Virus record (IMG/VR): IMGVR_UViG_3300011187_000006 | Location: 1 to 64,000 of that record | From: an uncultured virus (IMG/VR IMGVR_UViG_3300011187_000006) | Lineage: Duplodnaviria > Heunggongvirae > Uroviricota > Caudoviricetes | Length of the DNA: 64,000 bases | Reading direction: 5' to 3' (one strand) | Part shown: piece by piece, positions 6,842 through 59,681 of the stretch | How the letters are laid out: every line of letters begins with the position of its first letter | Position numbering within the stretch: the stretch's first letter is position 1 | Position numbers and translations under genes: made by a program | The notes under the pieces: generated by a model | The model's database searches: none | What the model was told of the DNA's origin: nothing | Seen by the model: only the letters and a program-made list of their open reading frames with translations

Positions 6842-7207
6842 ATGGGAAAAAGAAACAAAAGATTTATAAAAACAATGGCAATGTTTATAAAAGAAAGTGC
6901 TGAAGTGGACGAAACTTATATAGAGACAATTGAATTTGATGATGAAACATTAACTATACACAAAATTGCGGATAGTCCATTAAAAACACAGTTTTATGCT
7001 AATACATTGGAAGGAGAATCTTACATTGATATAAGTAAGATATTATCTGATAACATGTTAATAGATGCTGTGTGGATAGAGAAAGGTGGTGATGAAGAAA
7101 GAATAGCTGATAAAATAGATTGTTTGTCTAAAACAGACAAAACTACTAAGGCTGGTTTTAAAACTTTCATAATGTATAAAATGAACTACCCATTAGCTAA
7201 AGACTAA
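6842..7207 (+). CDS. Hypothetical protein whose 3' end is altered by the IS605 insertion
   Basis: Last codons (MNYPLAKD) come from the IS right end; removing 7181-8959 restores ...IMYKINK-stop. Confidence 0.55.
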   Translation: MGKRNKRFIKTMAMFIKESAEVDETYIETIEFDDETLTIHKIADSPLKTQFYANTLEGESYIDISKILSDNMLIDAVWIEKGGDEERIADKIDCLSKTDKTTKAGFKTFIMYKMNYPLAKD

Positions 7208-8382: not shown

Positions 8383-8482
8383 AATATTATATATTAAATT
8401 TTTAAAGTCCCTTTTACAAAATCGTGAATTATTTTGTAAAAGTTTCCATCTTTGAGTAAAAAACTTTTAAAAATAATTTACT

Positions 8483-8896
8483 ATGTCTAAAAAATCTAAT
8501 TACAATTCAACAAATCGTTCGAAACATTATCTAAAATGTTATTTAATCTTTGTATGTAAATACCGAAAGAAATTACTTGTTGGTCAATTAAAAGATGATA
8601 TGAAACAATTATTATTAAATATTACTTCTAAAAGTGATTTTGAAATAGAAGTATTTGAAAGTGATATAGACCATATACATTTTTTAATTAGATATATACC
8701 TCGTTTATCTATTACATCAATTGTTAGAAAATTAAAACAAGAATCTACTTATCATATATGGCGTTCTACATATAGAAATTATTTATTTAATCATTTCTGG
8801 AAAGAAAAAACATTTTGGTCAGATGGTTATTTTGTTTGTTCAATTGGAGAAGCTAATCCAAATACCATCAAACAATATATTTTAACACAAGGTTAG
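8483..8896 (+). CDS. tnpA: IS200-type Y1 (HUH) transposase TnpA
   Basis: KYRK, DHIH, FWSDGYF and YI..Q motifs. Confidence 0.93.
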   Translation: MSKKSNYNSTNRSKHYLKCYLIFVCKYRKKLLVGQLKDDMKQLLLNITSKSDFEIEVFESDIDHIHFLIRYIPRLSITSIVRKLKQESTYHIWRSTYRNYLFNHFWKEKTFWSDGYFVCSIGEANPNTIKQYILTQG

Positions 8897-10525: not shown

Positions 10526-10876
10526 TTAAAGATATACTTGCTTTAACTTTAAATTTCTTATAAATGATTTATTTTCTATAGCTTGTGAATCAGTAACTGA
10601 CAATATAAATGTAACTCTAACATCACCGTTTTTGAAAGCCGATGAAATTGTCATTCTTTCTATAGTAGAATTGTATAATACATAAGACACTTTAGGACTA
10701 TTATCATCATATATTATAAATTCAATATCGCCACTAGTTCCTTTAATATCTAAATACACTTTTTTTGGAATGGTGCATGTCATTTTGACCGATTCCCAAC
10801 TTTGCCAGCTATCAGGTCTTATGTTACTAACAATCTTATTACAAATGTAAAATACACTATTGTATATGAATTTCAT
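10526..10876 (-). CDS. Hypothetical protein with C-terminal RxxKL motif
   Basis: ORF track; ends IRNLKLKQVYL; TATATTTG promoter upstream. Confidence 0.55.
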   Translation of the reverse strand: MKFIYNSVFYICNKIVSNIRPDSWQSWESVKMTCTIPKKVYLDIKGTSGDIEFIIYDDNSPKVSYVLYNSTIERMTISSAFKNGDVRVTFILSVTDSQAIENKSFIRNLKLKQVYL

Positions 10877-14684: not shown

Positions 14685-15218
14685 ATGATAATTACAAGCT
14701 ATTCATTGTTCATCAATGAGAAAAACGAAACCAAAGAAGAAAAAATATATGAATATGGATGTGCTATGTTATACTTCAATGTTAAGAACTGGGAAGAAAT
14801 AACTAGCTTTATAGACAAAGAGGATATAGGTGAAGATGGTTTGGAAGATGAGCCTCACTTAACACTTCTATTTGGACTTCATAAAGATGAAGTTAGCATA
14901 GATGACGTGAAAAAGGCATTTGAAGGTTATACTTCTATTGATATAGAATTAGAGTCAGTTGATTTATTTGAGAATGATAAGTTTGATGTTGTTAAATTCA
15001 AAGTTAAAAAAACTAAAGAATTGTTAGATATTAATGAAAAATTATCTATATTGCCACATACTACAGACTTCCCTGATTATAATCCACATATCACAATAGC
15101 TTATGTGAAGAAAGGTAAGGGTAAAAAGTATGTTGTTGATAATTACAATGCTACTCTATCATCTAAAAAAGTTATGTACTCGGCAGATGAAAAGACTATG
15201 TTTAAACTAGAAGAATAA
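14685..15218 (+). CDS. 2H phosphoesterase, Acb1 (T4 57B)-like putative anti-CBASS nuclease
   Basis: Two HxT motifs (PHLTL; DFPDYNPHITIAY). Confidence 0.7.
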   Translation: MIITSYSLFINEKNETKEEKIYEYGCAMLYFNVKNWEEITSFIDKEDIGEDGLEDEPHLTLLFGLHKDEVSIDDVKKAFEGYTSIDIELESVDLFENDKFDVVKFKVKKTKELLDINEKLSILPHTTDFPDYNPHITIAYVKKGKGKKYVVDNYNATLSSKKVMYSADEKTMFKLEE

Positions 15219-20992: not shown

Positions 20993-21697
20993 ATGAGAAT
21001 TAAAATTAGTTTTACTCCAAACACTGAACCATTAATTAATAACCAGAAAATAGTAAATGGATTTATACATAAATGTCTAGGCAAGAACAACAAATATCAT
21101 AACTCTGTATCAGATTATACAATATCAAACCTAGAAGGTGGTGTGTTTATAAATGGTGGACGAGATGTAAATTTTCCAAATGGTGGCTTTATTGTTGTGA
21201 GTTCGTTGAAAGAAGATTTTATCGGTAAAGTCATAAATGGATTACATTTAGATGGTAATCTAGGAAAGGGTATGAAAGTAAATGGTATTGATTACATATC
21301 TGGAAATTTTTATAGTGGATATAATCATTTTAAAACACTTAGGAATGGTATTCTTCTAAAGACAAAATTAGGATTTTTAACATTAAAAGATAGTGGATTT
21401 GAAAAAGCTTTAGAAGAACAAACTAGATCCAAGTTTTCTAAGATAAATAAAGGATTAAGTTTCAAAGACTTCAAAATTGAAATTGGTCATAATAACAAAT
21501 CAAACAGAACTATAAATGTTTATGTAAATAACATCAGAAACAAATCTAGCTATTGTCCACTCACTATATATGGTGATAGAAGTCTTATTGAACATATATA
21601 TAATTATGGATTGGGTAATAGCACTGGTTCGGGGTTTGGGACTCTAATTAGAACTGATAATATTAGCAAATACCATCCAAAAGAAGAGCTATTTTAG
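20993..21697 (+). CDS. cas6: CRISPR RNA endoribonuclease Cas6
   Basis: C-terminal Gly loop GLGNSTGSGFG; adjacent to the array. Confidence 0.92.
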   Translation: MRIKISFTPNTEPLINNQKIVNGFIHKCLGKNNKYHNSVSDYTISNLEGGVFINGGRDVNFPNGGFIVVSSLKEDFIGKVINGLHLDGNLGKGMKVNGIDYISGNFYSGYNHFKTLRNGILLKTKLGFLTLKDSGFEKALEEQTRSKFSKINKGLSFKDFKIEIGHNNKSNRTINVYVNNIRNKSSYCPLTIYGDRSLIEHIYNYGLGNSTGSGFGTLIRTDNISKYHPKEELF

Positions 21698-22618: not shown

Positions 22619-23511
22619 TATAGAAATCATATTAATACATAGGGTAATCACAACCTTAACACAAATATCTACCAAAAGGCTTAGATAGTGATCATATTAA
22701 TACGTAAGGTAATCACAACGAGATGAGAAGAAATGTTTCTGAGGTGATTGATAGTAATCATATTAATACGTAAGGTAATCTCAACTGGTAATTATTTTAT
22801 AAAGCATGGTAGCATGATAGTAATCATATTAACACGTAAGGTAATCACAACAATATAGATGATGTTCTGCCTCCTACTTTAGATAGTAATCATATTAATA
22901 CATAAGGTAATCACAACTAAATACACGTTTAAACTGTCTGAATATGAAATATTAATCATATTAATACGCAAGGTAATCACAACGAATAGTACTTTAGATG
23001 TTTCTTAACTTCTGATAGTAATCATATTAATACGCAAGGTAATCACAACATCCAATCAACTACTAAAAAAAGTCCATTTGATAGTAATCATATTAATACA
23101 CAAGGTAATCACGACACAATTTCAGCCATTATCATAGCTTCTGTTGATGGTGATCATATTAATACGCAAGGTAATCACAACTACTCTTCTCCCAGGAGTA
23201 AAAGTTATGTAGATAGTAATCATATTAATACGTAAGGTAATCACAACAGAAAGTTTATTAATCGTCCAAAAAACTTTGATAGTAATCATATTAATACATA
23301 AGGTAATCACAACCAAAAATAGGGTGAAAGTAATACTAAGCTAGATAGTAATCATATTAATACGTAAGGTAATCACAACTACGAAGTAGACTTAACACCC
23401 CTTTTTGGAGATAGTAACCATATTAATACATAAGGTAATCAAAACCGACCTTCGCAACAATCGAAGCTAATTATTAGTAGTAATCATATTAATACATAAG
23501 GTAATCATAAA
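22619..23511 (+). CRISPR. CRISPR array 2: 14 more variable repeats, 13 spacers of 29-30 nt
   Basis: Same repeat family with point variants; terminal repeat degenerate. Confidence 0.97.
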
Positions 23512-23565
23512 TATATATAGCAATTGTTTTTTTTTATTAGTATATTCGCAGTCTAAAATATTAAT

Positions 23566-25815
23566 ATGATAGTAGCAAAGTCGAATAATGGTAATAATAT
23601 ATCATTAGAGGAACATTCAAAGGAAGTCAGTGATAAGGCTGTGAAAGAATTAAAAAAATTACCAAATGTGAAAGAACACTTAATGGTAAACATAAAGGTA
23701 GCTTCTCTATTGCACGATATTGGGAAGTCAACAGACTCTTTCCAAAAACATATAAATGGAGAGAAAGTAGATAAGAAACATAAAAACAAGTACTTACATC
23801 AACAAGTTTCATGGGCTTTTGTAGATACTTATTTCGATTATGTAAATTATTTCAAAGACAACGAAATAAAGAATTGTGTTGGTAAAAACATAATACCCAA
23901 TCTAATATATTGGCATCATGGTATCTTGGACAATGAGGGGATTTGTGCCAAAGATGTTTTAGGTAGTATACCATCTAGTGATATAGATACCATGAAGAAA
24001 GAGCTTGGTAAACTAATTGACAGTAAGTATATCATTAATAATCCTAAAAAAAATAACAATACTAGACCTGATTACTTTTTATTTAACAAAGATAGGAAAG
24101 AAAAAACAGACAACCTCAACCGAGATATAACATTAATTAGAATGATATTAGTTTATTCTGATAGAACTATATCTGGTGCTGATGATATAAATCTTAAAAA
24201 AGCAAACAAGTTCTTATTTGAAGTTTGTCACTTCCCTGACGACAAAAGATTCAAAGAGCAAAAAAAGATTATAAATGATATTAAGGATGAGGATAAAACT
24301 ACAATAATTAAAGCACCTACAGGATTTGGTAAAACTATGTTAGGTCTTATGTGGAGTGAGAAGTCAGATAAAAAGTTATTGTGGGTATGTCCTAGAAATA
24401 ATATAGCAATATCAACATACTATTCTATTGTAAAAGAATTAGAAGACTCTGAAAAGAAAGTAAATATAGAACTAAGGTATGCTGGGAAGGTTCAAAAGTC
24501 AAGCTTTAATGGAGAAGGAAAAGAAGCAGATATCATTATTACAAACATTGATTATTATCTAAGACCATATAGTAATGCTGGTAAAGACATGTCTCTTATG
24601 TATTTTATAATACATAGTGATGTTATATTTGATGAGTATCATGAAAATGTAACTGATTTACCTATATTTAGCCTCTTTATAAACCTTATGAGAGTTAGAA
24701 ACATAAAGACAGATTCTAGAACTTTGTTATTAAGTGCTACACCCATCGATATAAGCCATTTGTGGACTACTAATTCAAACAAAACTAAGATTATACCCAA
24801 TGATAAAAATCACTTACCTTCTATACATAATAAAAAATATAATGTTAATATTGTAAATAAGATACCTAATACAATATCAAACAATGAGATATTATTTGTT
24901 AATTCAATAAAAGAATCACAAGAAATTGCAAAGAAATTAACAAATGCTATATTAATACACTCTAATTTCATAGAAGGTGATAAATCAAAGATGTTTGATA
25001 AATTGTTAAATGATTATGGTAAGGATTCTAAAACAACTAACAGAAAGCCTTACATATCAACACTTATTTTACAAGCGGCTCTTGATATATCTTTTAATAA
25101 TCTATATGAGATACCATTATCCCCAGAATCCACATTACAACGGATAGGAAGATGTAACAGATGGGGTCGGAATAAAACTGCTACTATAAATATTATAGAC
25201 ACTTGTCCCACCACATCAAATGGCTATGTCGTTGATATAAAATATAATGAGAGTTTAAGAAAACTTTGGGTTGATCATTTAAAATTATTGAGTGGTAGTT
25301 CCTTAACACTTGACGAGATATATGTACATTATAATGATTTTAATATTACAAATAATACTGAAATAGTAGATTACATAGATGACAGTCTTCATCAAAGTAA
25401 TGAAAGTTCGAGTAACAATATATACCCAGTCAAGCATTATAACACAACACCACCAAGTTATATGTCGGCAAATTCTAACCCACTTAGAAGCAACGGTTCA
25501 GAAGTATTTTTTATAGTACAGGACGTTAAAGGCAAATGGGTTGGTCCATTCACCAAGAGCATGTACGATAGTTTTGATAAAGATTTTAATGAAGGTGGTA
25601 CCGCCATTTCGGTAGGTAAGATGATAAAAATAATAAAAAATATATCATCACCTACTTCTGGGTATAAATATAATTATGGTATAAATAGTAATAAACATTA
25701 TAAAAATATTAAAATAGACGATCTTAGAAGAAAAGCTAGGTTAGATAAATCACCCTATATAGCTATTAATTTCTCTTACGACTATAGGCTAGGGATAATT
25801 AAAAAGATTATTTAA
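23566..25815 (+). CDS. cas3: Cas3 HD nuclease-SF2 helicase
   Basis: EEH, HDIGK, WHHG and SD HD motifs; APTGFGKT, DEYH, SATP and QRIGRCNR helicase motifs. Confidence 0.95.
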   Translation: MIVAKSNNGNNISLEEHSKEVSDKAVKELKKLPNVKEHLMVNIKVASLLHDIGKSTDSFQKHINGEKVDKKHKNKYLHQQVSWAFVDTYFDYVNYFKDNEIKNCVGKNIIPNLIYWHHGILDNEGICAKDVLGSIPSSDIDTMKKELGKLIDSKYIINNPKKNNNTRPDYFLFNKDRKEKTDNLNRDITLIRMILVYSDRTISGADDINLKKANKFLFEVCHFPDDKRFKEQKKIINDIKDEDKTTIIKAPTGFGKTMLGLMWSEKSDKKLLWVCPRNNIAISTYYSIVKELEDSEKKVNIELRYAGKVQKSSFNGEGKEADIIITNIDYYLRPYSNAGKDMSLMYFIIHSDVIFDEYHENVTDLPIFSLFINLMRVRNIKTDSRTLLLSATPIDISHLWTTNSNKTKIIPNDKNHLPSIHNKKYNVNIVNKIPNTISNNEILFVNSIKESQEIAKKLTNAILIHSNFIEGDKSKMFDKLLNDYGKDSKTTNRKPYISTLILQAALDISFNNLYEIPLSPESTLQRIGRCNRWGRNKTATINIIDTCPTTSNGYVVDIKYNESLRKLWVDHLKLLSGSSLTLDEIYVHYNDFNITNNTEIVDYIDDSLHQSNESSSNNIYPVKHYNTTPPSYMSANSNPLRSNGSEVFFIVQDVKGKWVGPFTKSMYDSFDKDFNEGGTAISVGKMIKIIKNISSPTSGYKYNYGINSNKHYKNIKIDDLRRKARLDKSPYIAINFSYDYRLGIIKKII

Positions 25816-33175: not shown

Positions 33176-33694
33176 TTATTTTTCAACGGTAACTACTATA
33201 TCAAATTTATCTTCCTCATTAATAATTGCGTATTTTTCTAACATATCCTTTAATACTGTTAAGGAGATATGCTTTTTTTCTTCTCGTTTTCTTTTATCAT
33301 TTCTAATAGTATACTTTTCATCATCTAACAAAGGGAATAAAATAGCTACTCTAGTATAATCTTTTTTAAAATAGTTAAGAGTGTTTTTTCTTTTTTTAGA
33401 CATATTAGTCATATCAACAATAGCACATCTTCTATTTTTGTTAGATTCTATGAGCCTTTCTCTTAATAGTGTATTTACTTCTTTCTCATCAACTTCTGAA
33501 TAAGACTTATTATAATCATCACTACTTGATAACTCCATAATTATATCATCTCTAGATATAATATCAATATTTTCATAACCTTTCATATTTAGTATATTCT
33601 CTTTAATCCAAGTGGTTTTGCCAGATAGTGGTAATCCAATCAACATTATGATAAATGGTGTCTTTAATTCGGATATGTTTAAGGCTGGCTTCAT
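33176..33694 (-). CDS. P-loop kinase (AAA_33/PNK-like)
   Basis: GLPLSGKT, ISRDD and VDMTN motifs. Confidence 0.75.
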   Translation of the reverse strand: MKPALNISELKTPFIIMLIGLPLSGKTTWIKENILNMKGYENIDIISRDDIIMELSSSDDYNKSYSEVDEKEVNTLLRERLIESNKNRRCAIVDMTNMSKKRKNTLNYFKKDYTRVAILFPLLDDEKYTIRNDKRKREEKKHISLTVLKDMLEKYAIINEEDKFDIVVTVEK

Positions 33695-33732: not shown

Positions 33733-34770
33733 ATGATTAAAAATTATTTAAGTTTTAAAAACCATTCTATTATGGAAAAGTTAATAACAGAATCTGTTGT
33801 GTATTACTCACCAAATTTTAGAAATACTATATCAATAATTGGTGGTGATATATCAGATGCATTACTTTCATTAGAAGGCGAGGATATAAACCCAGATATA
33901 ACTTTTATTGATAACGGTAAAAAAGAAGGATATGTTAGTTTTACAACAATGAATAGTGCTATTAGAAAAGTTAATAATAATGTCAGAGTACCCATAACTA
34001 AATTTGATGAGTTTAGTGAAGAATTGGCAGATGAGATACACAATAATGATGTTGGTGGCATATACAAAGGGAATAGAAGTGAGTTTAAAATAGGCAAATT
34101 TATTAATAGAGCATTCCCGAGTCGATTTAGTAAAGAAGAAGTTGAAAATTTTGTAAATAAATATAAATCAAACTCAAATTATTCAGAAGCACACATTGAA
34201 ATAGTATCTGGTGATGAAATACCAGAGTGGTATGACGCGGACAAACACTTTATACAAAAACGAACTGGTACACTAGGGAAGTCTTGTATGGTAGGCGTTG
34301 ATTCTAATTTGTTTAAAATGTTTGTAAATAATAAAGATGTTTGTAGCCTAGCAATATTAGTTAAAGATGGTAAGTTATTAGCTAGAGCTTTAGTATTTAA
34401 ACTAAATGGTATTAATACTATAAGTGATGAACTTGGGGATCTAGAATATTATATGGATAGAAGATATTATTTCACTGATTCAGATGGTGATAAGTTAGTT
34501 AAATATGCTAAGGATAATGGTTGGGGTTACAGAACTCACAATAGTATTAAAAACATGGATTTAATGAACTATGGTGATAAGACATATAGAGTTAATATGA
34601 ACATAAAGTTAGAAGGTGATTATAATGCTTATCCATTTATGGATACTTTCAGAAATTACGATAAGGAAAGAAAAATTTTATATAACAATAATGTAGAATA
34701 TGAGGGATACTATCTACTTGATAGCACATGTGGTGGATATAACACTAGAGGTGGTGATTTGGGCCTTTAA
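33733..34770 (+). CDS. Hypothetical phage protein
   Basis: 345-aa ORF; GTLGKSCM and YMDRRY motifs; TTAATATATA upstream. Confidence 0.6.
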   Translation: MIKNYLSFKNHSIMEKLITESVVYYSPNFRNTISIIGGDISDALLSLEGEDINPDITFIDNGKKEGYVSFTTMNSAIRKVNNNVRVPITKFDEFSEELADEIHNNDVGGIYKGNRSEFKIGKFINRAFPSRFSKEEVENFVNKYKSNSNYSEAHIEIVSGDEIPEWYDADKHFIQKRTGTLGKSCMVGVDSNLFKMFVNNKDVCSLAILVKDGKLLARALVFKLNGINTISDELGDLEYYMDRRYYFTDSDGDKLVKYAKDNGWGYRTHNSIKNMDLMNYGDKTYRVNMNIKLEGDYNAYPFMDTFRNYDKERKILYNNNVEYEGYYLLDSTCGGYNTRGGDLGL

Positions 34771-35125
34771 ACTGCTCAACAACCCTAACATAGTTATGTA
34801 GTATGCTATTTATATTATGAGCACCAACTGTGTTGTCAGAATGTACATACCATTTAGGCATTTTTAAACTATTATCTAAACATATCTCTATTAAATAATT
34901 GGCAGCATCTTTACCAGTGTATTCTTTACTATCTTTATATGAAGCTATGTCGTGATCAAATGATATAAGTGTTATATTTTCTATATTATCATCTAAGAAT
35001 TTAATGAAAGAAAAATAATCTCTTATTATAATCCATTTATTAGAATCAGAATATTCATTACCTAATCCTTTAGTTTTATTATGTGACATATTTGGTTCTC
35101 TTATATCATCTAAGAATATATTCAT
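34745..35125 (-). CDS. Cyclic-phosphate-processing receiver-like domain protein
   Basis: FLDDIR, ISFDHD and VHSDNTVG motifs. Confidence 0.6.
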   Translation of the reverse strand: MNIFLDDIREPNMSHNKTKGLGNEYSDSNKWIIIRDYFSFIKFLDDNIENITLISFDHDIASYKDSKEYTGKDAANYLIEICLDNSLKMPKWYVHSDNTVGAHNINSILHNYVRVVEQFKGPNHHL

Positions 35126-35574: not shown

Positions 35575-35711
35575 ATACTATATATTCAAATATAACAGTT
35601 TAGTTTGAATTATATGTTGTTTTTTGTGTTAATTTTTTTTGTTGCTTATTAACAACAAAAAGTGCTAAAATGTTGCTTATTAACAACATTTAGTTTTAAC
35701 TATAATTTTTG

Positions 35712-35784
35712 TCGAAGATGTCCGATTCGAACAGCAATTCGATGTCCCAAACATCGTGTGTTACCAGATTACACTACACCCTCG
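35712..35784 (-). tRNA. tRNA-Pro(TGG), imperfect T stem
   Basis: Anticodon arm CGATG-TTTGGGA-CATCG. Confidence 0.7.
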
Positions 35785-35793
35785 CTATACTTG

Positions 35794-35867
35794 TTACCCC
35801 AGTAGGGTTCGAACCTACAATCTCCTGGACCAAAGCCAGACGTGTTAACCAATTACACTATAGAGCA
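35794..35867 (-). tRNA. tRNA-Gln(TTG)
   Basis: Cloverleaf; TCTGG-CTTTGGT-CCAGG. Confidence 0.88.
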
Positions 35868-35873
35868 TTTTTG

Positions 35874-35945
35874 CAGTCCATAGGGGATTCGAACCCCTAT
35901 CTTCCGAGAGACAGTCGGAAATGATAACCTTTACACTAATGGACT
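35874..35945 (-). tRNA. tRNA-Asp(GTC)
   Basis: Cloverleaf; TCCGA-CTGTCTC-TCGGA. Confidence 0.88.
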
Positions 35946-35957
35946 ATTAAAAATTTG

Positions 35958-36031
35958 TCGAGAAGACAGGAATCGAACCTGCTAACTGATGCCTCCAATG
36001 CACCCGTGCTTATAACCTTAGTCACTTCTCG
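35958..36031 (-). tRNA. tRNA-Pro(TGG)
   Basis: CGAGAAG/CTTCTCG acceptor; GGTGC-ATTGGAG-GCATC. Confidence 0.78.
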
Positions 36032-36040
36032 ATTAACTTG

Positions 36041-36114
36041 TTACCCCAGCAGGGTTCGAACCTGCAATCTTCTGGACCAAAACCAGATGTGTTAGCCAAT
36101 TACACTATGGGGCA
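36041..36114 (-). tRNA. tRNA-Gln(TTG)
   Basis: Cloverleaf; TCTGG-TTTTGGT-CCAGA. Confidence 0.9.
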
Positions 36115-36126
36115 ATTTAATATTAG

Positions 36127-36199
36127 CAGCTCTGATGGGAATCGAACCCACTCCGTTACGTGAGACAGACGTACATCTTAACCATTTGACCTCAGAGCT
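36127..36199 (-). tRNA. tRNA-Asp(GTC)
   Basis: Cloverleaf; TACGT-CTGTCTC-ACGTA. Confidence 0.88.
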
Positions 36200-36207
36200 A
36201 TATAAAC

Positions 36208-36246
36208 AAAAAAACTCGGTTAATCTAAAAGACTAACCGAGTTTTT
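36208..36246 (-). terminator. Attenuator terminator upstream of the Asp/Gln/Pro tRNA cluster
   Basis: AAAACTCGGTTAGTC...GATTAACCGAGTTTTTTT on the minus strand. Confidence 0.85.
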
Positions 36247-36264
36247 GTTTTTATTATTTAAATA

Positions 36265-36369
36265 TCAACTTAAATTTAAAACATAGTTAGCACCTTTCGT
36301 ATCAGAATCCTGATCGATATCAACTTGGGGTTGAGGGTTAACTACTATGTTTAAGTTTAAATTTTTCAT
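36265..36369 (-). CDS. Leader peptide MKNLNLNIVVNPQPQVDIDQDSDTKGANYVLNLS
   Basis: 34-aa ORF between promoter and terminator; P/Q/D block matches the downstream tRNAs. Confidence 0.8.
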   Translation of the reverse strand: MKNLNLNIVVNPQPQVDIDQDSDTKGANYVLNLS

Positions 36370-36530
36370 TATGTTTTATATATTAACTTTTATTTCTCTC
36401 TATGGTTATTTATAGACTTTTTTTTTATAAAAGTTTAGAATTATATTATTTCTATGCAAATATAATATAAATAAATGGTTTATACAAGGTTTTTTTTAAA
36501 TTAAAATAATCTTTTTTAATATATAGAGTT

Positions 36531-39871: not shown

Positions 39872-39912
39872 AAAAAAGAGGGGATATAATTAATTATATC
39901 CCCTCTTTTTTT
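39872..39912. terminator. Bidirectional terminator ending the tRNA operon
   Basis: AAAAAAGAGGGGATATAAT/ATTATATCCCCTCTTTTTT. Confidence 0.85.
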
Positions 39913-39913
39913 G

Positions 39914-39999
39914 TACCGCTAGTTGGACTTGAACCAACAATAAGATTTCTCTAACTTGGATATGAGCCAAGCACAATTACCACATCTGTTCATAGCGAT
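39914..39999 (-). tRNA. tRNA-Met(CAT) (or Ile2) with a long variable arm
   Basis: CTTGG-CTCATAT-CCAAG; variable region TTAGAGAAATCTTAT. Confidence 0.75.
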
Positions 40000-40003
40000 T
40001 TAG

Positions 40004-40093
40004 TACACCAGGTGGGATTTGAACCCACGTTGTTCACCTCAAAGGGTATCAGATTTTAAGTCTGATGCGTTTCATCCACTTCGCCACTGGTGC
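40004..40093 (-). tRNA. tRNA-Leu(TAA)
   Basis: TCAGA-CTTAAAA-TCTGA; long variable arm. Confidence 0.88.
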
Positions 40094-40103
40094 ATTTTTT
40101 TAG

Positions 40104-40177
40104 AGCTGACAGAGGGATTCAAACCCACAACTTTTTGATTACAAATCAAAATGCTCTACCAATTGAGCTATGTCAGC
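40104..40177 (-). tRNA. tRNA-Thr(TGT)
   Basis: TTTGA-TTTGTAA-TCAAA. Confidence 0.85.
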
Positions 40178-40184
40178 ATATTAG

Positions 40185-40256
40185 AGTACCTAGAGGGATT
40201 CAAACCCCCGTACGATGGGTTGCAGCCACCTACCTAAATCACTCGGTCATAGGTAC
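40185..40256 (-). tRNA. tRNA-Cys(GCA)
   Basis: GGTGG-CTGCAAC-CCATC; U discriminator. Confidence 0.85.
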
Positions 40257-40262
40257 ATTTTG

Positions 40263-40336
40263 TAGTTCTGGTTGGATTCGAACCAACGACTTCTTCCTTG
40301 TAAGGGAAGCATTCTGAACCCCTGAATTACAGAACT
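40263..40336 (-). tRNA. tRNA-Val(TAC)
   Basis: CTTCC-CTTACAA-GGAAG. Confidence 0.88.
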
Positions 40337-40345
40337 TTTTATTTG

Positions 40346-40426
40346 TACCCTAGATAGGACTCGAACCTATATTTTCAGCTTCCAATTACCCTTAATTGTT
40401 TAGAAGACAATCGGGACTACTAAGGC
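40346..40426 (-). tRNA. Non-canonical tRNA-Arg(TCT) lacking a D arm
   Basis: GCCTTAG/CTAGGGT acceptor; ATTGT-CTTCTAA-ACAAT only ~8 nt after it; long variable region; normal T arm. Confidence 0.7.
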
Positions 40427-40436
40427 ATTTATTTTG

Positions 40437-40526
40437 TACCAGTGGTCGGACTCGAACCGACAATGTTTACCTCTTGGGTACTAGTTCCTAAGACTAGCGT
40501 GTTTCATCCAATTTCACCACACTGGT
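40437..40526 (-). tRNA. tRNA-Leu(TAG)
   Basis: CTAGT-CTTAGGA-ACTAG; long variable arm. Confidence 0.88.
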
Positions 40527-40532
40527 ATTTAT

Positions 40533-41273
40533 TTATATTTTACTATGTATTTCTCTATGACAATTAGAACATAATAAAATACATTTATCAACTTCTTTTT
40601 TTAACCTTTCAAGTGACCAAGACTTTCCGCCGATACTAAAATCTTTTTCATTAGGATCTAAATGATGAAATTCTAAAGCACTTATACATTTAGAATATCC
40701 ACATTTTTCACATTTACCACCTTTATATTCTAGTAGTTCGACTTTCTTTCTTTTTCTCCAAGATACTACATATATTGCTTTTTCTTTCTTTATTTCATCT
40801 TTTGTCATTTTTTTTCTTTTTTTAAGTGTTACATATTTTCGTATAGTACGAAAAGAATGTCCCATTTCTTTACTAACTTTCTTAATACTACCCAACTTAT
40901 CATATTGTGTTCTTATTTCATCTATCTCTGTTTCTGATAATTTACCATATTTACCACAATTTACCAAATCGTGCATTCTACATATTTTAGATATGGACTT
41001 TATTGAAATATTTGTTTTTTCTTTTATATCAGAATAACTTAATTTATTTTTCCTTAATTTTATTACCTCACCAATATCATAGTTTTCTATTAAAAATGAT
41101 TTATCTTTAAACTGTTTCTTATTTTTTTCAATTACATTTTTCAATTTTATTTTATTATTAGATTTTATTTTAGAGCAATGATAAGATACTGTTGATTTAG
41201 AACAGTTTAATTCTTCACATATTGTTTTATAGCTATGTCCCATTTTTCTTAGTTCTAATATTCTTTCTTTCAT
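40533..41273 (-). CDS. HNH endonuclease with N-terminal HTH repeats, inserted in the tRNA cluster
   Basis: CEKCGY...LEFHH...LCSNCHREIH. Confidence 0.88.
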   Translation of the reverse strand: MKERILELRKMGHSYKTICEELNCSKSTVSYHCSKIKSNNKIKLKNVIEKNKKQFKDKSFLIENYDIGEVIKLRKNKLSYSDIKEKTNISIKSISKICRMHDLVNCGKYGKLSETEIDEIRTQYDKLGSIKKVSKEMGHSFRTIRKYVTLKKRKKMTKDEIKKEKAIYVVSWRKRKKVELLEYKGGKCEKCGYSKCISALEFHHLDPNEKDFSIGGKSWSLERLKKEVDKCILLCSNCHREIHSKI

Positions 41274-41344
41274 ACTATTTATTTTTTATAGTATATATAA
41301 ATATTAGAACTCACCCCTAAACATACATGTCATTTATCTAAAAG

Positions 41345-41426
41345 TCGGCACAGTAGGACTCGAACCTACGTTTTCAACTTACCAACTACAGTTCTCCAAG
41401 GTATCAGCTTGGGCTGGTATGTGCCG
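41345..41426 (-). tRNA. Non-canonical tRNA-Ile(GAT) lacking a D arm
   Basis: CGGCACA/TGTGCCG acceptor; CCAAG-CTGATAC-CTTGG 7 nt after it; long variable region; normal T arm. Confidence 0.7.
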
Positions 41427-41434
41427 ATTATTTG

Positions 41435-41508
41435 CTCCTCCCACGAGATTTGAACTCGTAACCTTCTGATTAACAGTCAGATGCATCTGCCAGTTGAGCT
41501 AGAGAGGA
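41435..41508 (-). tRNA. tRNA-Asn(GTT)
   Basis: TCTGA-CTGTTAA-TCAGA. Confidence 0.9.
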
Positions 41509-41520
41509 TTGTAATATCTG

Positions 41521-41605
41521 TACTAATGATGAGATTTGAACTCATATAATCATTTCTGATTAAAGGATTTTGAATCCCTCGTGTCTACCATTCCACCACA
41601 CTAGC
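41521..41605 (-). tRNA. tRNA-Leu(CAA)
   Basis: AGGGA-TTCAAAA-TCCTT; long variable arm. Confidence 0.88.
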
Positions 41606-41612
41606 ATAAAAC

Positions 41613-41648
41613 AAAAAAACCCCTAGAATTTTCATTTCTAGGGGTTTT
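41613..41648 (-). terminator. Attenuator terminator upstream of the 10-tRNA cluster
   Basis: AAAACCCCTAGAA...TTCTAGGGGTTTTTTT on the minus strand. Confidence 0.88.
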
Positions 41649-41671
41649 AGTTATTTGTATTTTTTATTTCA

Positions 41672-41791
41672 CTATGTCATAAGATGAAATTTATTAAATA
41701 CACTAGAACCCCTAGATGGTCTATTACATAACATAATATTCACCACATTGAGCGTTAAGTTTCTATTTGTATTTAGGTTTAAATTTTTCAT
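41672..41791 (-). CDS. Leader peptide MKNLNLNTNRNLTLNVVNIMLCNRPSRGSSVFNKFHLMT
   Basis: 39-aa ORF; codons 3-24 use only amino acids of the downstream tRNAs. Confidence 0.82.
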   Translation of the reverse strand: MKNLNLNTNRNLTLNVVNIMLCNRPSRGSSVFNKFHLMT

Positions 41792-41936
41792 CGCTATTAT
41801 ATATTAAATTTTATTTCTTCCTTTGGTTATTTATATTCTTTTTTTACTAAAAGTTTAAATTATTTTAGGTTCTGTGCAAATATATAACTAATATTTGTTT
41901 CTCACAAGTGTTTTTTAAAAAGATTTAAATTTATTT

Positions 41937-49139: not shown

Positions 49140-50375
49140 TTAACTATCAACAAATTCTTGTTTGATTATTTTTATTATCTTCTCAATAGTCACATCCTCT
49201 AAATCTGTCATATTTACAAGTTCACTAAAACCATAAGATAGTAATGATTTAGCAGTATCTATACCAGCTTTTTTAAATTCATTTATTACCCATAAATCAA
49301 CTTCATCAGAAAATTCCATAAGATCTATATCTTCCTCTGTAGCTTGCTCATCATTTATAAGATTTATTTCTAGACCAGTAAGTAAGCTAGTTAATCTTAT
49401 ATTAGAACCTTTCTTACCAATAGCCTTACCAATATCTTCACCATTTAAATGAACGTCAGCTTTACCATCTTCTACCTTTATAAATTTAACAACGGCTGGT
49501 TTTAACGACCTAGTTATATATAAATCCATATTATTTGTGTAGCTTATGATATCTATACTCTCACCATTTAGCTCTCTAGTAACTGCCATTATTCGACTTC
49601 CTCTACTACCAACACAAGTTCCAACAGGATCAATTCTATCATCATATGTTTCCACTGCTACCTTAGCTTTAATACCAGGTACTCTAACTATGTTCTTTAT
49701 ATTTATTAGACCATCGAATATTTCAGGTATTTCTTGTTCCATTATTCTTTCTAGAAACTTACTTGATGTTCTTGATGCAATAATGTATGGCTTATTGTTT
49801 CTAATTTCAGCTTCTTCTACCACAAATGATATTGTATCACCTTTTCTGTAAAACTCACCAGGTATCTGATTATCTTTTGGTAAACAAATTTCAATACCCT
49901 CATCATCTAGTAATATAACCATATTTCTTTTTATGTGATGGACTTCGGCATTGAAAATATATCCAATCATATCTTCAAACTTCTCTATTGTTGATTTATT
50001 TTCGTAGTCTTTTATTCTAGCCTTTAGATTCTGTCTTAAACTTAATATAGATCTTCTTCCTAATTCTGATATTTTGAATTCTTGTGGATATTCTTCCCCT
50101 ATTTCAAAATCTGACTCCACCTTAAGAACTTCTGAAATTTCTATTTCAGTATTGTGGTTTTCAACCTCGCCATCTTGTACAACGATTTTGTTTTGCCATA
50201 TTTCTAAATCTCCGTTATCTGGGTTTAGAATTATATCAAAGTTTTCATCTGTATCATATTTTTTTCTAAACTCAAATCTAAAAACAGAGTCTAGGATTTC
50301 CATTATCTCTATTTTATTAATCATTTTGTCTGACTTAAGCTCAGTAAATGAATCTATAATTGATGTGTTATTCAT
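49140..50375 (-). CDS. nusA: Transcription termination/antitermination factor NusA
   Basis: S1 and KH domains: EIPEIFDG, RIDPVGTCVGSRGSRI and AIGKKGSNIRL. Confidence 0.95.
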   Translation of the reverse strand: MNNTSIIDSFTELKSDKMINKIEIMEILDSVFRFEFRKKYDTDENFDIILNPDNGDLEIWQNKIVVQDGEVENHNTEIEISEVLKVESDFEIGEEYPQEFKISELGRRSILSLRQNLKARIKDYENKSTIEKFEDMIGYIFNAEVHHIKRNMVILLDDEGIEICLPKDNQIPGEFYRKGDTISFVVEEAEIRNNKPYIIASRTSSKFLERIMEQEIPEIFDGLINIKNIVRVPGIKAKVAVETYDDRIDPVGTCVGSRGSRIMAVTRELNGESIDIISYTNNMDLYITRSLKPAVVKFIKVEDGKADVHLNGEDIGKAIGKKGSNIRLTSLLTGLEINLINDEQATEEDIDLMEFSDEVDLWVINEFKKAGIDTAKSLLSYGFSELVNMTDLEDVTIEKIIKIIKQEFVDS

Positions 50376-52298: not shown

Positions 52299-52591
52299 AA
52301 TAATATGTACATTTTCTCTATATATATATTATTAATATGTTTCTAAGAAATCTCCATTAATGAATCACCACCATAAACTATCACATCTACTGAATTTGTT
52401 AGCTTAGAAATCGGTGACATGTCCACAATATCAACAACTCACCTATCTATAGTGAAGCTTTGATATTTTCTAGCCTGATGATTTTTAGACAACTTCTCCA
52501 ATTCATCTGATGCAAATTTAGTAATTACTCCTCTCTCTATCTATCTCGCACTCAAATCTTCTATAATTATTGTTTTTTTTTAATTAAGCTG

Positions 52592-52669
52592 TGGAGGATA
52601 TCGGATTTGAACCGATGTATGACACAGCTTGCAAAGCTATCGCTTACGACCAGACTGAGCTAATCCCCC
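52592..52669 (-). tRNA. tRNA-Ala(TGC)
   Basis: G3:U70 acceptor pair; ATAGC-TTTGCAA-GCTGT. Confidence 0.85.
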
Positions 52670-52677
52670 CATTAATG

Positions 52678-52751
52678 AGCAAATGATAGGATTCGAACCT
52701 ACAACTTTCTGAATGGAAATCAGACACTCTAGCCAATTGAGCTACATTTGC
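52678..52751 (-). tRNA. tRNA-Gly(TCC)
   Basis: TCTGA-TTTCCAT-TCAGA. Confidence 0.87.
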
Positions 52752-52762
52752 ATTTTATATCG

Positions 52763-52836
52763 AGCAGGTAATCGGGATCAAACCGATTCTATTCTAGCTT
52801 GGAAGGCTAGTGCACCATCACTTATGCGTTACCTGC
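52763..52836 (-). tRNA. tRNA-Gly(TCC)
   Basis: CTAGC-CTTCCAA-GCTAG. Confidence 0.8.
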
Positions 52837-52844
52837 TTATTTTG

Positions 52845-52918
52845 TTGGTATGATGGGTATCGAACCCACTATCTCATGGATATAAGCCATGTGCTTTTAC
52901 CATCTAAGCTACATACCA
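52845..52918 (-). tRNA. tRNA-Ile(TAT)
   Basis: CATGG-CTTATAT-CCATG. Confidence 0.85.
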
Positions 52919-52932
52919 ATTTATAATAAAAT

Positions 52933-52961
52933 AAAAAACCCAGTCATTTCTGACTGGGTTT
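52933..52961 (-). terminator. Attenuator terminator upstream of the Ile/Gly/Gly/Ala cluster
   Basis: AAACCCAGTCA-GAAA-TGACTGGGTTTTTT on the minus strand. Confidence 0.88.
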
Positions 52962-52984
52962 ATGATAATTTATAATTAAATTAA

Positions 52985-53059
52985 TTACATAACAATTCCC
53001 AGCCAATGAGTTTTCCCTTTGCCTATCGCTATTATTGCTATGTTATTAATTGTTCTCAT
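52985..53059 (-). CDS. Leader peptide MRTINNIAIIAIGKGKTHWLGIVM
   Basis: 24-aa ORF; ATA GCA ATA ATA GCG ATA GGC AAA GGG block. Confidence 0.8.
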   Translation of the reverse strand: MRTINNIAIIAIGKGKTHWLGIVM

Positions 53060-53106
53060 AATTGTTATATTACACTATATATTAAAAGTTTACTCTCCCT
53101 CTTAAA

Positions 53107-53325: not shown

Positions 53326-53578
53326 AATAATTTATTTTTGTAATTCAATTTCTTTTAATATCCTTTTCGGATAAAAAAACGAAAAATGTGTCTTAGCTTG
53401 CTCAACATTGTAGGCTTTAAATACACATTTATGTATTTTTTTACCAGTCTTATAAACATATACACACTTAAAATCTTGTATTGTGTTTTTTTCCATTTAA
53501 AAGCTTTTTAAAATTAAATAATAGGCAAATATAAGCATTATATTATTATAATCCTATTTTAAACAATATTTAAATTAG

Positions 53579-53651
53579 TACTCCGTGGGAGAATTGAACT
53601 CCCGTTACCAAGTTGAAAGCCTGGGGTCCTAGTCCACTAGACGAACGGAGC
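53579..53651 (-). tRNA. tRNA-Glu(TTC)
   Basis: CCAGG-CTTTCAA-CTTGG. Confidence 0.88.
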
Positions 53652-53661
53652 ATGTACTAAG

Positions 53662-53744
53662 TGGGCGTAGTGGGACTCGAACCCACAATACCTTTCGGAA
53701 TCGGTTTTACAGACCGACATGACTACCTGTGCCATATTACCCCC
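53662..53744 (-). tRNA. tRNA-Tyr(GTA)
   Basis: TCGGT-CTGTAAA-ACCGA; variable arm CC-GAAA-GG. Confidence 0.82.
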
Positions 53745-53757
53745 ATATTTTTAAAAC

Positions 53758-53794
53758 AAAAAACCCAGTCTATATTACTAGACTGGGTTTTTTT
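53758..53794 (-). terminator. Attenuator terminator upstream of the Tyr/Glu tRNAs
   Basis: AAACCCAGTCTA...TAGACTGGGTTTTTT. Confidence 0.88.
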
Positions 53795-53810
53795 TATACT
53801 ATAATTTAAT

Positions 53811-53894
53811 TTACATTATAGACATCAAAAGACTAGCCGAGCGTTTTCGTTCAGATTCTTCATAATAATATTCTATGTTAGTAAAAGTATTCAT
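53811..53894 (-). CDS. Leader peptide MNTFTNIEYYYEESERKRSASLLMSIM
   Basis: 27-aa ORF; GAA TAT TAT TAT GAA GAA TCT GAA block. Confidence 0.82.
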   Translation of the reverse strand: MNTFTNIEYYYEESERKRSASLLMSIM

Positions 53895-53914
53895 TTTATT
53901 TATTTATTTATTTG

Positions 53915-53987
53915 TAGCGGGAGTTGGACTCGAACCAACGACCTCTAGGTTATGAGCCTAGCGAGCTACCTACTGCTCTACCCCGCG
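53915..53987 (-). tRNA. tRNA-Met(CAT), initiator-like
   Basis: CGCGGGG start with unpaired position 1:72; CTAGG-CTCATAA-CCTAG. Confidence 0.88.
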
Positions 53988-55694: not shown

Positions 55695-56111
55695 TTATTG
55701 GTTATAAATTTCTCTAAAATATTTAGACACTAACTTCTTATCTGCTGGTAATTTACTAAACTTTTTCATAATACCACCTATGTTATCAACACCATCTTTT
55801 ATAAATTGTGAAACTTTCTCTTTTATCTCAATTTCGCTCATTTCTTTAGGAAGATACTTAGATATAATCTCAAGTTCTTCTTTAGCTACTTCATCACCAT
55901 TTGATAAGCTTTCCTTTAAAGATTTAGTCATCTTATTTAAAATTTTAGTAACTTCCTTATCAGATAGTGTTTCTACTCGCATATTCTTCTCTAATGTTTG
56001 AATTTCGCCTTTGACTACTGATAGAAGCTTTTTATCTAAATCTTTTCTAGCTTTAAAAGCCATCATGTAATCTTTACTGATTTCTTCCTTTAATGATAAT
56101 TTGTTTGACAT
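55695..56111 (-). CDS. GatB/YqeY domain protein
   Basis: LKEEI..D...AFKAR, ELEIISKYLP and IGGIMK motifs. Confidence 0.85.
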   Translation of the reverse strand: MSNKLSLKEEISKDYMMAFKARKDLDKKLLSVVKGEIQTLEKNMRVETLSDKEVTKILNKMTKSLKESLSNGDEVAKEELEIISKYLPKEMSEIEIKEKVSQFIKDGVDNIGGIMKKFSKLPADKKLVSKYFREIYNQ

Positions 56112-57811: not shown

Positions 57812-58246
57812 TTATGTATTTCTAGATATTTCTCTTTTTAAATCTTTTTCTTTTAAATCTTTTCTTTTATCATACAGTTTTTTACCCTTGCCAAGTCCTA
57901 TCTTTACTTTTATCTTATTAGATTTAATAAACACTTTTAAAGGCACACACGTATTTCCTTTATCTTTTAGAAATTTCTGTATCTTCTCTATTTGTTTTTT
58001 TGTCAAAAGTAGCTTTTTATCCCTATCTTCTATATGTACAACAGATGGGTGTGCATGGCTATATTTGCTTACTCTAAAGCTTTTAATATAGACCTCAGAG
58101 TTAGATATGAATATAAAAGAATCATTCATAGACACATTACCATCCCTAATGCTTTTAACCTCACCACCTTCTAACATTATACCACAGTCAAATTCCTCTA
58201 ATATATTAAAATCAAAATATGCTCTTTTATTTTTTATAGTTTTCAT
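57812..58246 (-). CDS. smpB: SsrA-binding protein SmpB
   Basis: NKRAYFD, GIML.GGEVKSIR, R.KKLLL and GKGKKLYDKR motifs. Confidence 0.93.
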   Translation of the reverse strand: MKTIKNKRAYFDFNILEEFDCGIMLEGGEVKSIRDGNVSMNDSFIFISNSEVYIKSFRVSKYSHAHPSVVHIEDRDKKLLLTKKQIEKIQKFLKDKGNTCVPLKVFIKSNKIKVKIGLGKGKKLYDKRKDLKEKDLKREISRNT

Positions 58247-59075: not shown

Positions 59076-59681
59076 TTAAGAATACATTTTATCTATTTTA
59101 TCGAAATTGTTTTCACATATGTCAATTAAAAGCATACGACCATTTCTAATCTGTGATTTTATAGTGGACAAGTTTTTACCAAGATCACTAGAGATGTCTT
59201 TATAAGACATCTTTCTAATCTCTCTCATTTCAATAACTGTTCTATAAGGCTCTTTTAACCTATATATCGAATCTTTCATTAACTTAGCCTTTTTATTAAT
59301 AACAATATACTTAGACTCATCTTCATCTTCATCATTTGATATGAAGCTTTTCATTGTTGTACCATCATTGTCATATTCAACATCGAGTGATATAGACTTT
59401 TTGCTTTTTTTCACATCTTGATAAGATAAATTTTTAGCTATTGTAAATAACCATGTAGAAAATTGTGCCTTTGATTTATCATAAAGTTCTATTTTATTAA
59501 ATGCTACTATGAAAGAGTCAGTAGATATATCCTCTGCCTTTTTTCTATCATTACATATCTTAGATGTGAAGTATATTAGTTTAGGATAATACTTTTTATA
59601 TAGAAATGTAAAATCTTTACCAGTTCTTTCTTTAAATAATTTCTCTTTTTCCGAGAAATAGCTTTCTTGTTTTATTTCCAT
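59076..59681 (-). CDS. ECF-type RNA polymerase sigma factor
   Basis: AEDI...FSTWLFTIAKN (region 2); SYKDIS...TIKSQIRNGR (region 4). Confidence 0.9.
   Translation of the reverse strand: MEIKQESYFSEKEKLFKERTGKDFTFLYKKYYPKLIYFTSKICNDRKKAEDISTDSFIVAFNKIELYDKSKAQFSTWLFTIAKNLSYQDVKKSKKSISLDVEYDNDGTTMKSFISNDEDEDESKYIVINKKAKLMKDSIYRLKEPYRTVIEMREIRKMSYKDISSDLGKNLSTIKSQIRNGRMLLIDICENNFDKIDKMYS

Follow-up and report, generated by a model that had tools for sequence, protein, structure and literature searches.

Candidate leader-peptide attenuators ahead of tRNA gene blocks in an uncultured virus and related megaphages

We analyze a stretch of 64,000 nucleotides (nt) from an uncultured virus of the Caudoviricetes (IMG/VR record IMGVR_UViG_3300011187_000006, positions 1 to 64,000; hereafter, we refer to the whole stretch as "the window"). 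Our subject is a unit on its minus strand in which a short open reading frame (ORF) and an intrinsic terminator precede six tRNA genes for Asp, Gln, and Pro ("the Asp/Gln/Pro unit"). The window is AT-rich (28.7% G+C), and the sequencing runs listed for it are DNA only, from lake and salt-lake metagenomes. The parent virus record is 78.7 kb long with a CheckV completeness of 11%, so the full genome should be very large. All tRNA genes of the window lie on the minus strand, 19 by ARAGORN and 20 by Rfam at gathering score.

Read in the direction of transcription, the unit starts with a TTAATATATA promoter-like motif (36377..36386, minus strand, as are all features of the unit), which lies 7 nt before the ATG of the leader ORF (36265..36369; 34 codons and a TGA stop). 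Codons 12-23 of the leader (36301..36336) comprise 2 Pro, 3 Gln, and 4 Asp codons together with Val, Ile, and Ser, in agreement with an initial annotation of the locus, which had counted nine Pro, Gln, or Asp codons among twelve sensor codons (in our coordinates, 36336..36301). The sensor codons are enclosed by a predicted hairpin whose 5' arm (region 1) is 36336..36363 and whose 3' arm (region 2) is 36267..36294; the GCUAACU of region 2 is at 36291..36285. The intrinsic terminator (36203..36246) has a stem of 17 pairs, 36246..36230 with 36226..36210, followed by a U tract. From the leader stop to the terminator stem is 18 nt, and from the terminator stem to the first tRNA gene is 10 nt. About 170 nt thus lead from the promoter-like motif to the full terminator, with just the 34-codon ORF between them, and the genes behind the terminator are six tRNA genes, with no protein gene as far as 35711. 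Motif, ORF, and terminator lie together between divergent genes. The nearest minus-strand feature upstream of them is at a distance of 3.5 kb and is closed by a terminator of its own, so nothing else could end at the terminator 36246..36210.

The TTAATATATA motif occurs 22 times in the window versus 3.4 times expected, a number reached in 0 of 100 shuffles. Its copies almost always precede an ORF start, one of three leaders, or a tRNA-Met gene by 4-30 nt (for example 36516-36525 on the plus strand, and 54013-54004 and 2093-2084 on the minus strand), and its ATATA is invariant in 7/7 aligned leaders of the relatives described below. It is probably a phage-specific promoter that gives very short 5' untranslated regions. 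Farther out, roughly 88 nt upstream of the leader start, a TATATTTG box (36457..36464, minus strand) is a possible promoter element of the host type. This box occurs 26 times on the minus strand of the contig and 12 times on its plus strand, including copies upstream of two other leaders of the window, leader b (41884) and, together with a tRNA-Met gene, leader c (54052). The homologous leaders of two megaphages, LR756502 and LR745206, are likewise preceded by it. The box resembles the consensus TAnnTTTG, which we take to be the Bacteroidota -7 element; this resemblance, along with the similarity of the tRNAs to those of a Cellulophaga phage, suggests that the host is perhaps a member of the Bacteroidota.

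Behind the terminator, the six genes follow in the order tRNA-Asp(GUC) copy 1 (36126..36199; 50.7 bits; anticodon loop CUGUCUC, with U37), tRNA-Gln(UUG) copy 1 (36040..36114; 64.6 bits), a tRNA-Pro(UGG) that we call type II (35958..36031; 30.4 bits; weak D arm, A37, C1-G72/A73), tRNA-Asp(GUC) copy 2 (35873..35945; 58.5 bits; the loop of copy 1 on a different stem), tRNA-Gln(UUG) copy 2 (35793..35867; 60.8 bits), and a type I tRNA-Pro(UGG) (35711..35784; 40.1 bits; canonical loop UUUGGGA). The scores are those of a sensitive Rfam run (cut-off 29 bits), which found all six; ARAGORN calls five, without 36031..35958, and Rfam with its gathering speed filters also calls five, without 35784..35711. 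The two copies are 70% identical for Asp, 89% for Gln, and 68% for Pro. The initial annotation had described the block as Asp-Gln-Pro-Asp-Gln-Pro with the same anticodons on diverged bodies, the Asp and Pro pairs differing in their anticodon stems and the Gln pair being close, and each of these points holds. It had also called the block a duplicated triplet. The order does repeat, but a simple or recent duplication of the triplet does not fit the relatives, in which each isotype has 1-4 copies and the genes are ordered differently. The copies fall into several paralog lineages, with 85-97% identity between phages versus mostly 51-79% among paralogs within a phage (a few pairs reach 86-89%). 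Judged by these identities, the Asp, Gln, and Pro copies are old paralog lineages kept across phages.

The same order of motif, short ORF, terminator, and tRNA genes is found in three further units on the same strand, so that the window holds four. Unit b (39872..41807, minus strand) has its motif at 41807..41798, its leader at 41791..41672, its terminator at 41648..41616, and a final terminator at 39911..39872. Its leader is rich in Asn, Leu, Thr, Val, Met, Cys, and Arg, and it is followed, in order, by genes for tRNAs Leu, Asn, and Ile-like, an HNH gene, and genes for tRNAs Leu, Arg-like, Val, Cys, Thr, Leu, and Met; 26 of 38 leader codons are read by the downstream tRNAs, and the predicted antiterminator has a folding energy of -17.3 kcal/mol (z = -5.9). 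The leaders of unit b and of the Asp/Gln/Pro unit open with nearly the same 21 bases (2 matches versus 0.04 expected). In unit c (53578..53894, minus strand; leader 53894..53811, terminator 53792..53759), 3 Tyr and 4 Glu codons lie within 8 codons of a leader that precedes tRNA-Tyr and tRNA-Glu. The leader of unit d (52591..53085, minus strand; motif 53085..53076, leader 53059..52985, terminator 52961..52936) is rich in Ile ATA, Ala, and Gly codons and precedes tRNAs Ile(UAU), Gly(UCC) twice, and Ala(UGC), with an antiterminator of -13.6 kcal/mol (z = -4.0).

Two complete megaphages, both uncultured, came up in BLAST searches: LR756502.1 (642 kb; 50 Rfam tRNA matches) and LR745206.1 (635 kb; 61 matches). 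PMC9723777 counts them among the largest known phages and gives their origins as a lake in France and a subsurface sample from Japan. One script applied to the window contig and the two megaphages returned 17 units of leader plus terminator, and one more was recognized by eye in LR756502. Each megaphage has seven unit families: His/Phe/(Trp)/Lys; Arg/Ser; Glu/Tyr; Ile/Gly; Asn/Leu/Thr/Val and others; Pro/Asp; and Gln alone, in which a run of Gln codons stands before 3-4 Gln tRNAs. A pattern scan of IMG/VR gave 13 loci, namely 6 true relatives of the Asp/Gln/Pro unit and 7 chance matches in unrelated DNA, which we excluded (L009, L010, L011, L013, L015, L019, and L020). In two of the true relatives, L017 and L021, the leader is identical to that of the window, and they were left out of the alignment as duplicates. 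The four diverged IMG/VR relatives share the layout of the unit. In all six relatives outside the lineage of the window, the Gln tRNAs stand behind a second, Gln-only candidate attenuator. The window contig has no Gln-only unit; its Gln tRNAs are interleaved with those for Asp and Pro under one leader.

Similarity of the tRNA-Gln genes also led to a cultured virus, Cellulophaga phage phi4:1 (NC_021788.1), whose array of 22 tRNAs is headed and divided by three such units. One of its leaders has 11 consecutive codons that are all decoded by the seven tRNAs behind it, and every leader has a stretch complementary to its own terminator. Our strict terminator finder recovered two of the three units, while the third, with an imperfect stem, was read by eye. 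The hypothetical protein gp075 (L022 5451-5570) is one of these tRNA leader ORFs, and its annotated TTG start is doubtful. As a control, 0/16 tRNAs of the tRNA-rich Rhodococcus phage Francesca stand behind a terminator-like hairpin; this control is weak, as actinobacterial terminators may differ.

The composition of the leaders matches the tRNAs that follow them. Asp, Gln, and Pro together make up 12.2% of codons in the 49 long ORFs of the contig, and the binomial chance of nine among twelve is about 1e-6, uncorrected for the choice of the window of codons. We scored the best 10-codon window of each leader against a null of 1336 short ORFs from the same DNA, the leaders themselves included. 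By this measure, 16 of 17 units are enriched for the isotypes of their own operon (P <= 0.023); the best window of the Asp/Gln/Pro leader scores 8/10, which is equalled by 2 of the 1336 null ORFs (P = 0.0015). The choice of codon tracks the anticodons as well. The Arg/Ser leaders use CGT, CGC, and CGA ahead of Arg(acg) and Arg(tcg), whereas AGA makes up 73% of the Arg codons of the window phage; ATA codons stand ahead of Ile(tat), and runs of CAA and CAG ahead of Gln tRNAs.

The leader is conserved as a reading frame. Homologous leader ORFs in 6 diverged relatives are in frame with ATG and stop present, and throughout the seven diverged leaders of this family (family A), ATG, frame, and stop are retained and an Asp-Gln-Asp core is invariant. 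The Pro codons differ among relatives at the third position only. Over codons 10-23, the variable columns number 1, 2, and 5 of 14 at codon positions 1, 2, and 3, the pattern that selection on a translated sensor would give. The GCUAAY of region 2 is invariant, as Ala-Asn codons, in 7/7 aligned leaders.

At the RNA level, the leader region (181 nt) folds at -48.6 kcal/mol (z = -7.2; 0 of 200 shuffles are as stable) into a long interrupted hairpin around the sensor codons (36363..36336 with 36294..36267), followed by the terminator. The pairing that the initial annotation had placed around the sensor codons exists as part of this longer helix. Its proposed alternative between GCUAACU and GGUUAGU likewise appears, as the core of a fold in which region 2 pairs with the 5' arm and loop of the terminator. 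The predicted energies are -25.5 kcal/mol for the 1:2 hairpin, -12.9 kcal/mol for this 2:3 alternative (computed with region 1 and the 3' arm of the terminator omitted), and -22.6 kcal/mol for the 3:4 terminator, and the trp leader of Escherichia coli has a similar hierarchy.

Across the seven aligned relatives, 88.5% of cells in the terminator are paired, with 2 compensatory pairs, and the antiterminator pairs in 76.8% of cells versus 23-48% for slid controls, a value reached by 17 of 500 shuffles. RNAalifold places a core, GUUAAC(C) just 5' of the sensor with region 2, in 6/7 relatives, and in each sequence region 2 folds onto the segment 5' of the sensor, in a register of its own for each relative.

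A swap test, which is free of bias from the pattern used to collect sequences, takes the 3' part of every leader (17 in all) and pairs it with the 5' arms of all 17 terminators. The mean energy is -12.0 kcal/mol with the leader's own terminator versus -7.4 kcal/mol with foreign ones, the own terminator ranks first in 10 of the 17 units and within the top four in 17/17, and 0 of 20,000 permutations are as good (P = 5e-5). In the Leu/Asn family, leader and terminator have changed together between the window and LR745206, with antiterminator energies of -17.3 and -15.6 kcal/mol (z = -5.9 and -4.1).

The Asp/Gln/Pro unit is likely to be a trp-type leader-peptide attenuator, that is, a ribosome-mediated transcription attenuator that would sense slow decoding and regulate the matching tRNA genes. 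The initial annotation had read the leader as gating the tRNA cluster, and computation strongly supports this through recurrence, conservation, and the complementarity tests. An ORF between a promoter-like motif and a terminator, clustered codons, the terminator itself, and a predicted antiterminator sharing a strand with it are all present, as in class I attenuators. The unit departs from that class in that the putatively regulated genes are tRNA genes and not biosynthesis or synthetase genes, which is no mechanistic criterion. From the layout, conservation, codon match, and complementarities, we infer that the leader ORF is translated, which way the switch works, and that the tRNAs feed back on it.

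The proposed cycle would run as follows. Under fast decoding of the sensor codons, a ribosome would reach the stop codon and sit between regions 2 and 3, and the terminator would form; once the ribosome has left, or if none had loaded, region 1 would pair again with region 2, so that the terminator would still form and few tRNA transcripts would be made. If the tRNA for Asp, Gln, or Pro is scarce, a ribosome would stall within the hairpin loop and hold region 1 off region 2. The freed region 2 (GCUAACU and its neighbours) could then capture the newly made 5' arm of the terminator, and RNA polymerase would enter the tRNA genes. The new Asp, Gln, and Pro tRNAs would in turn end the stall, which amounts to negative feedback on decoding capacity. 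In this phage and its relatives, there would be one such unit per tRNA block, each spelled in the amino acids of its own block.

Several observations weigh against a trp-type attenuator, or against parts of the evidence for it. One of the 17 units is unenriched for its own isotypes (P = 0.11), and the 17 are not independent, as the three phages share seven families. Under strict wobble rules, just 7 of 33 codons of the Asp/Gln/Pro leader are decoded by the downstream anticodons, and both Pro codons (CCT and CCC) require extended U34 wobble. In the relatives, the first leader retains Gln codons though the Gln tRNAs follow the second, Gln-only attenuator. Four of the seven aligned relatives were fetched by a pattern that fixes GCTAAY, GTTAGTC, and GATTAAC, so the invariance of those columns is partly selected. 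The 1:2 register of the window is not kept column by column: projected onto the seven-sequence alignment, the helix is 65.7% paired, a value that 488 of 500 shuffles reach, and we set this projection aside as unsupported and relied on the per-sequence folds and the RNAalifold core instead. The antiterminator duplex of family A is modest (-8.9 kcal/mol, z = -1.9), and the Tyr/Glu unit of the window has no convincing one (z = +0.9). Finally, equilibrium folding with the ribosome footprint masked at each codon favours the terminator at every modelled ribosome position, so the switch would have to be kinetic, as we assume; we dropped this calculation as a test, since it cannot model a kinetic switch. 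The terminator is preferred at equilibrium in the trp leader of E. coli too.

Other explanations account for parts of the same data. The leader might be a general gauge of translation or of amino-acid starvation, with the tRNA genes merely lying downstream. Leader-peptide attenuators sense charged tRNA, so a shortage of amino acid would stall the ribosome as well, and the sensor also contains Val, Ile, and Ser codons. However, each of the seven families is spelled in the amino acids of its own block, in part down to the exact codons, which a gauge would not need, and extra tRNA does not cure a shortage of amino acids; we regard a general gauge as unlikely. A switch made of RNA only, in the manner of a T-box, in which the run of codons binds tRNA anticodons without translation, would explain why codons complementary to the downstream anticodons occur in an RNA that can fold into either a terminator or an antiterminator. 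We hold it to be very unlikely, because the codons invariably share the frame of an ATG and of a stop that keeps a constant distance to the terminator, because third positions accept synonymous changes, and because a single specifier does not resemble runs of 7-11 codons. Rfam gave no T-box match in 35690..36400, at gathering score or at E <= 1, and no other riboswitch family there. A match of the terminator to the Rfam "trpB motif" (25.5 bits; cut-off, 59), together with other sub-threshold matches, was rejected as chance.

Short ORFs abound in AT-rich DNA and the terminator is very stable, which is what would be seen if an ordinary constitutive terminator or an RNA-processing hairpin happened to follow a chance ORF. 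Such a coincidence is highly improbable given that the layout of promoter, 34-codon ORF, and terminator recurs before tRNA blocks in at least nine phages with matched composition, and given the swap test and the absence of the arrangement from the Rhodococcus control. Nor do we think that the peptide itself is the product, as a small protein with its own function, which we rate as the most remote of these readings: the N-terminal residues of the leader peptides are similar between families, but the middle changes wholesale with the tRNA block, and the conserved flanks are the RNA pairing arms.

The class I leader-peptide attenuators, among them those of trp and his and, in enterobacteria, the multivalent leaders of thr and ilv, are the closest known systems to the trp-type attenuator proposed here. 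They share with the phage units a short ORF with regulatory codons and a terminator before the regulated genes, and their mutually exclusive 1:2, 2:3, and 3:4 pairings are predicted for the phage units as well, more tentatively for 1:2. In the thr and ilv leaders, too, several amino acids are sensed by one leader. To our knowledge, the described members all regulate genes for amino-acid biosynthesis or for synthetases. The phage units, in contrast, would regulate tRNA genes, so that the output is the very molecule sensed; as many as seven units, each with a spelling of its own, occur in one phage genome; little or no 5' untranslated region precedes the leader ORF; and the phages probably infect Bacteroidota. 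In the pheST attenuator of E. coli, with its pheM leader, attenuation acts on a part of the translation machinery dedicated to the amino acid being sensed, but what it controls is a synthetase protein and not tRNA genes, one unit senses one amino acid, and the system belongs to a cell, not a virus. T-boxes also couple the status of a tRNA to read-through of a terminator ahead of translation-related genes; unlike the proposed attenuator, they bind uncharged tRNA directly with no ribosome, and Rfam found no T-box features in the phage unit.

Leader-peptide attenuation is thus a textbook mechanism, and, as far as we found in the full-text literature outside subscription journals, its application to tRNA genes has not been reported. 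What the present case adds is a megaphage clade (> 630 kb) in which each genome divides its tRNAs by isotype among about seven units, with some units arranged in series and with many diverged copies of the same anticodon. Why phages carry tRNA genes, and how these are controlled, has been debated for decades. If the proposed mechanism is true, phages would gauge how individual codons are being decoded and produce the corresponding tRNAs as needed, and read-through of the terminator of each unit would be a cheap and direct readout of which host tRNAs are limiting during infection. The idea would connect to current work on tRNA-cutting defence systems, and the same design in the cultured phi4:1 makes it testable now. 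The units might also serve as compact parts for codon-specific or tRNA-specific sensors.

The tRNAs themselves have unusual features. Both Asp copies have one common anticodon loop, with U at position 37. The type II tRNA-Pro occurs in seven homologous copies (L007:22870-22943 and 23443-23516; L008:10132-10205 and 10590-10663; L014:1669-1742; L016:1403-1475; and 35958-36031 of the window, minus strand), in which 9/20 pairs, in the acceptor, anticodon, and T stems, are compensatory. Its anticodon loop has A37; position 33 is C in the relatives and U in the window, and position 34 is U or A. ARAGORN labels the copies variously as Pro, as Ser, or as undetermined with a four-base anticodon. With 30.4 bits and compensatory stems, the gene qualifies as a cloverleaf, though with an atypical D arm. 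The portion of van den Berg et al. 2023 (PMC10264068) available to us proposes unusual anticodon loops of phage tRNAs as a means of nuclease evasion; the loops reported here (U37 in Asp, C33/A37 in Pro) are altered in a like manner. That portion does not describe the regulation of phage tRNA genes ("promoter" occurs in it 0 times and "regulat..." twice). The initial annotation had suggested that the divergent duplicates may hedge against sequence-specific anticodon nucleases. Diverged but conserved copies with unusual loops would be compatible with such nuclease evasion, with dosage, or with some other specialization.

A broader and more tentative reading, which we think possible if rather doubtful, is that the units form a modular surveillance of decoding, in which about seven sensors, each watching a few codons, together cover tRNAs for nearly all amino acids and act as a sensor-and-resupply counter-defence. 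Were host tRNAs to be cut or depleted during infection, with anticodon nucleases as one conceivable cause, the sensor concerned would open and no other, and the released tRNAs (U37 Asp, C33/A37 Pro, diverged bodies) would be poor nuclease substrates. Such a system would go beyond the tuning of codon usage, and genes resembling those of RNA repair do lie nearby.

One of these, a gene with a cyclic-phosphate-processing receiver domain (34745-35125, minus strand), is directly downstream of the Asp/Gln/Pro block; farther off are genes for an AAA_33/KTI12-like P-loop kinase (33176-33694, minus strand) and for a LigT/2'-5' RNA ligase/Acb1-like protein (14685-15218, plus strand). Interspersed with the tRNA blocks are a NusA homologue (49140-50375), SmpB (57812-58246), and a YqeY/GatB-like gene (55695-56111), all on the minus strand, and the proteins of the window include one of the sigma-70 family (59076-59681, minus strand). 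NusA is a factor of termination and antitermination, and SmpB takes part in the rescue of stalled ribosomes; a phage NusA could tune the attenuators. A Cas6-like gene (20993-21697) and an HD/DEAD Cas3-like gene (23566-25815), both on the plus strand, represent a phage-borne CRISPR-Cas remnant or system. This set of NusA, SmpB, sigma, RNA-repair, and Cas genes fits a phage that invests in translation and in RNA conflict, and it proves nothing about the Asp/Gln/Pro unit.

Further observations concern the other tRNA blocks. A tRNA-Met gene (53914-53987, minus strand) lies between a promoter motif and the Tyr/Glu leader, an order that is identical in LR745206 (L006 25871-26116). As the tRNA-Met gene directly follows the motif, ribosomes would have to translate the Tyr/Glu leader on a transcript with a tRNA at its 5' end. 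In unit b, two tRNA-like genes on the minus strand, 40346-40426 (UCU) and 41345-41426 (GAU), have almost no D arm and a variable region of 22-23 nt (39.1 and 28.8 bits in Rfam); ARAGORN misses or misreads them, and a similar UCU gene is present in LR756502. HNH/HTH homing-endonuclease-like ORFs lie between the tRNA genes of operons under a putative attenuator, at 40533-41273 (minus strand) in the window and in the gaps 155-935 and 1781-2841 of L018. Elsewhere in the window, an IS200/IS605 pair (7204-8896) consists of a TnpB-like gene (7204-8382, minus strand) and a TnpA Y1 transposase gene (8483-8896, plus strand). Between the last tRNA of the Asp/Gln/Pro unit and the ORF at 35574, an 18-nt near-palindrome is present in two copies (35640-35657 and 35671-35688) that are 31 nt apart, and the pair may be an operator or a weak terminator.

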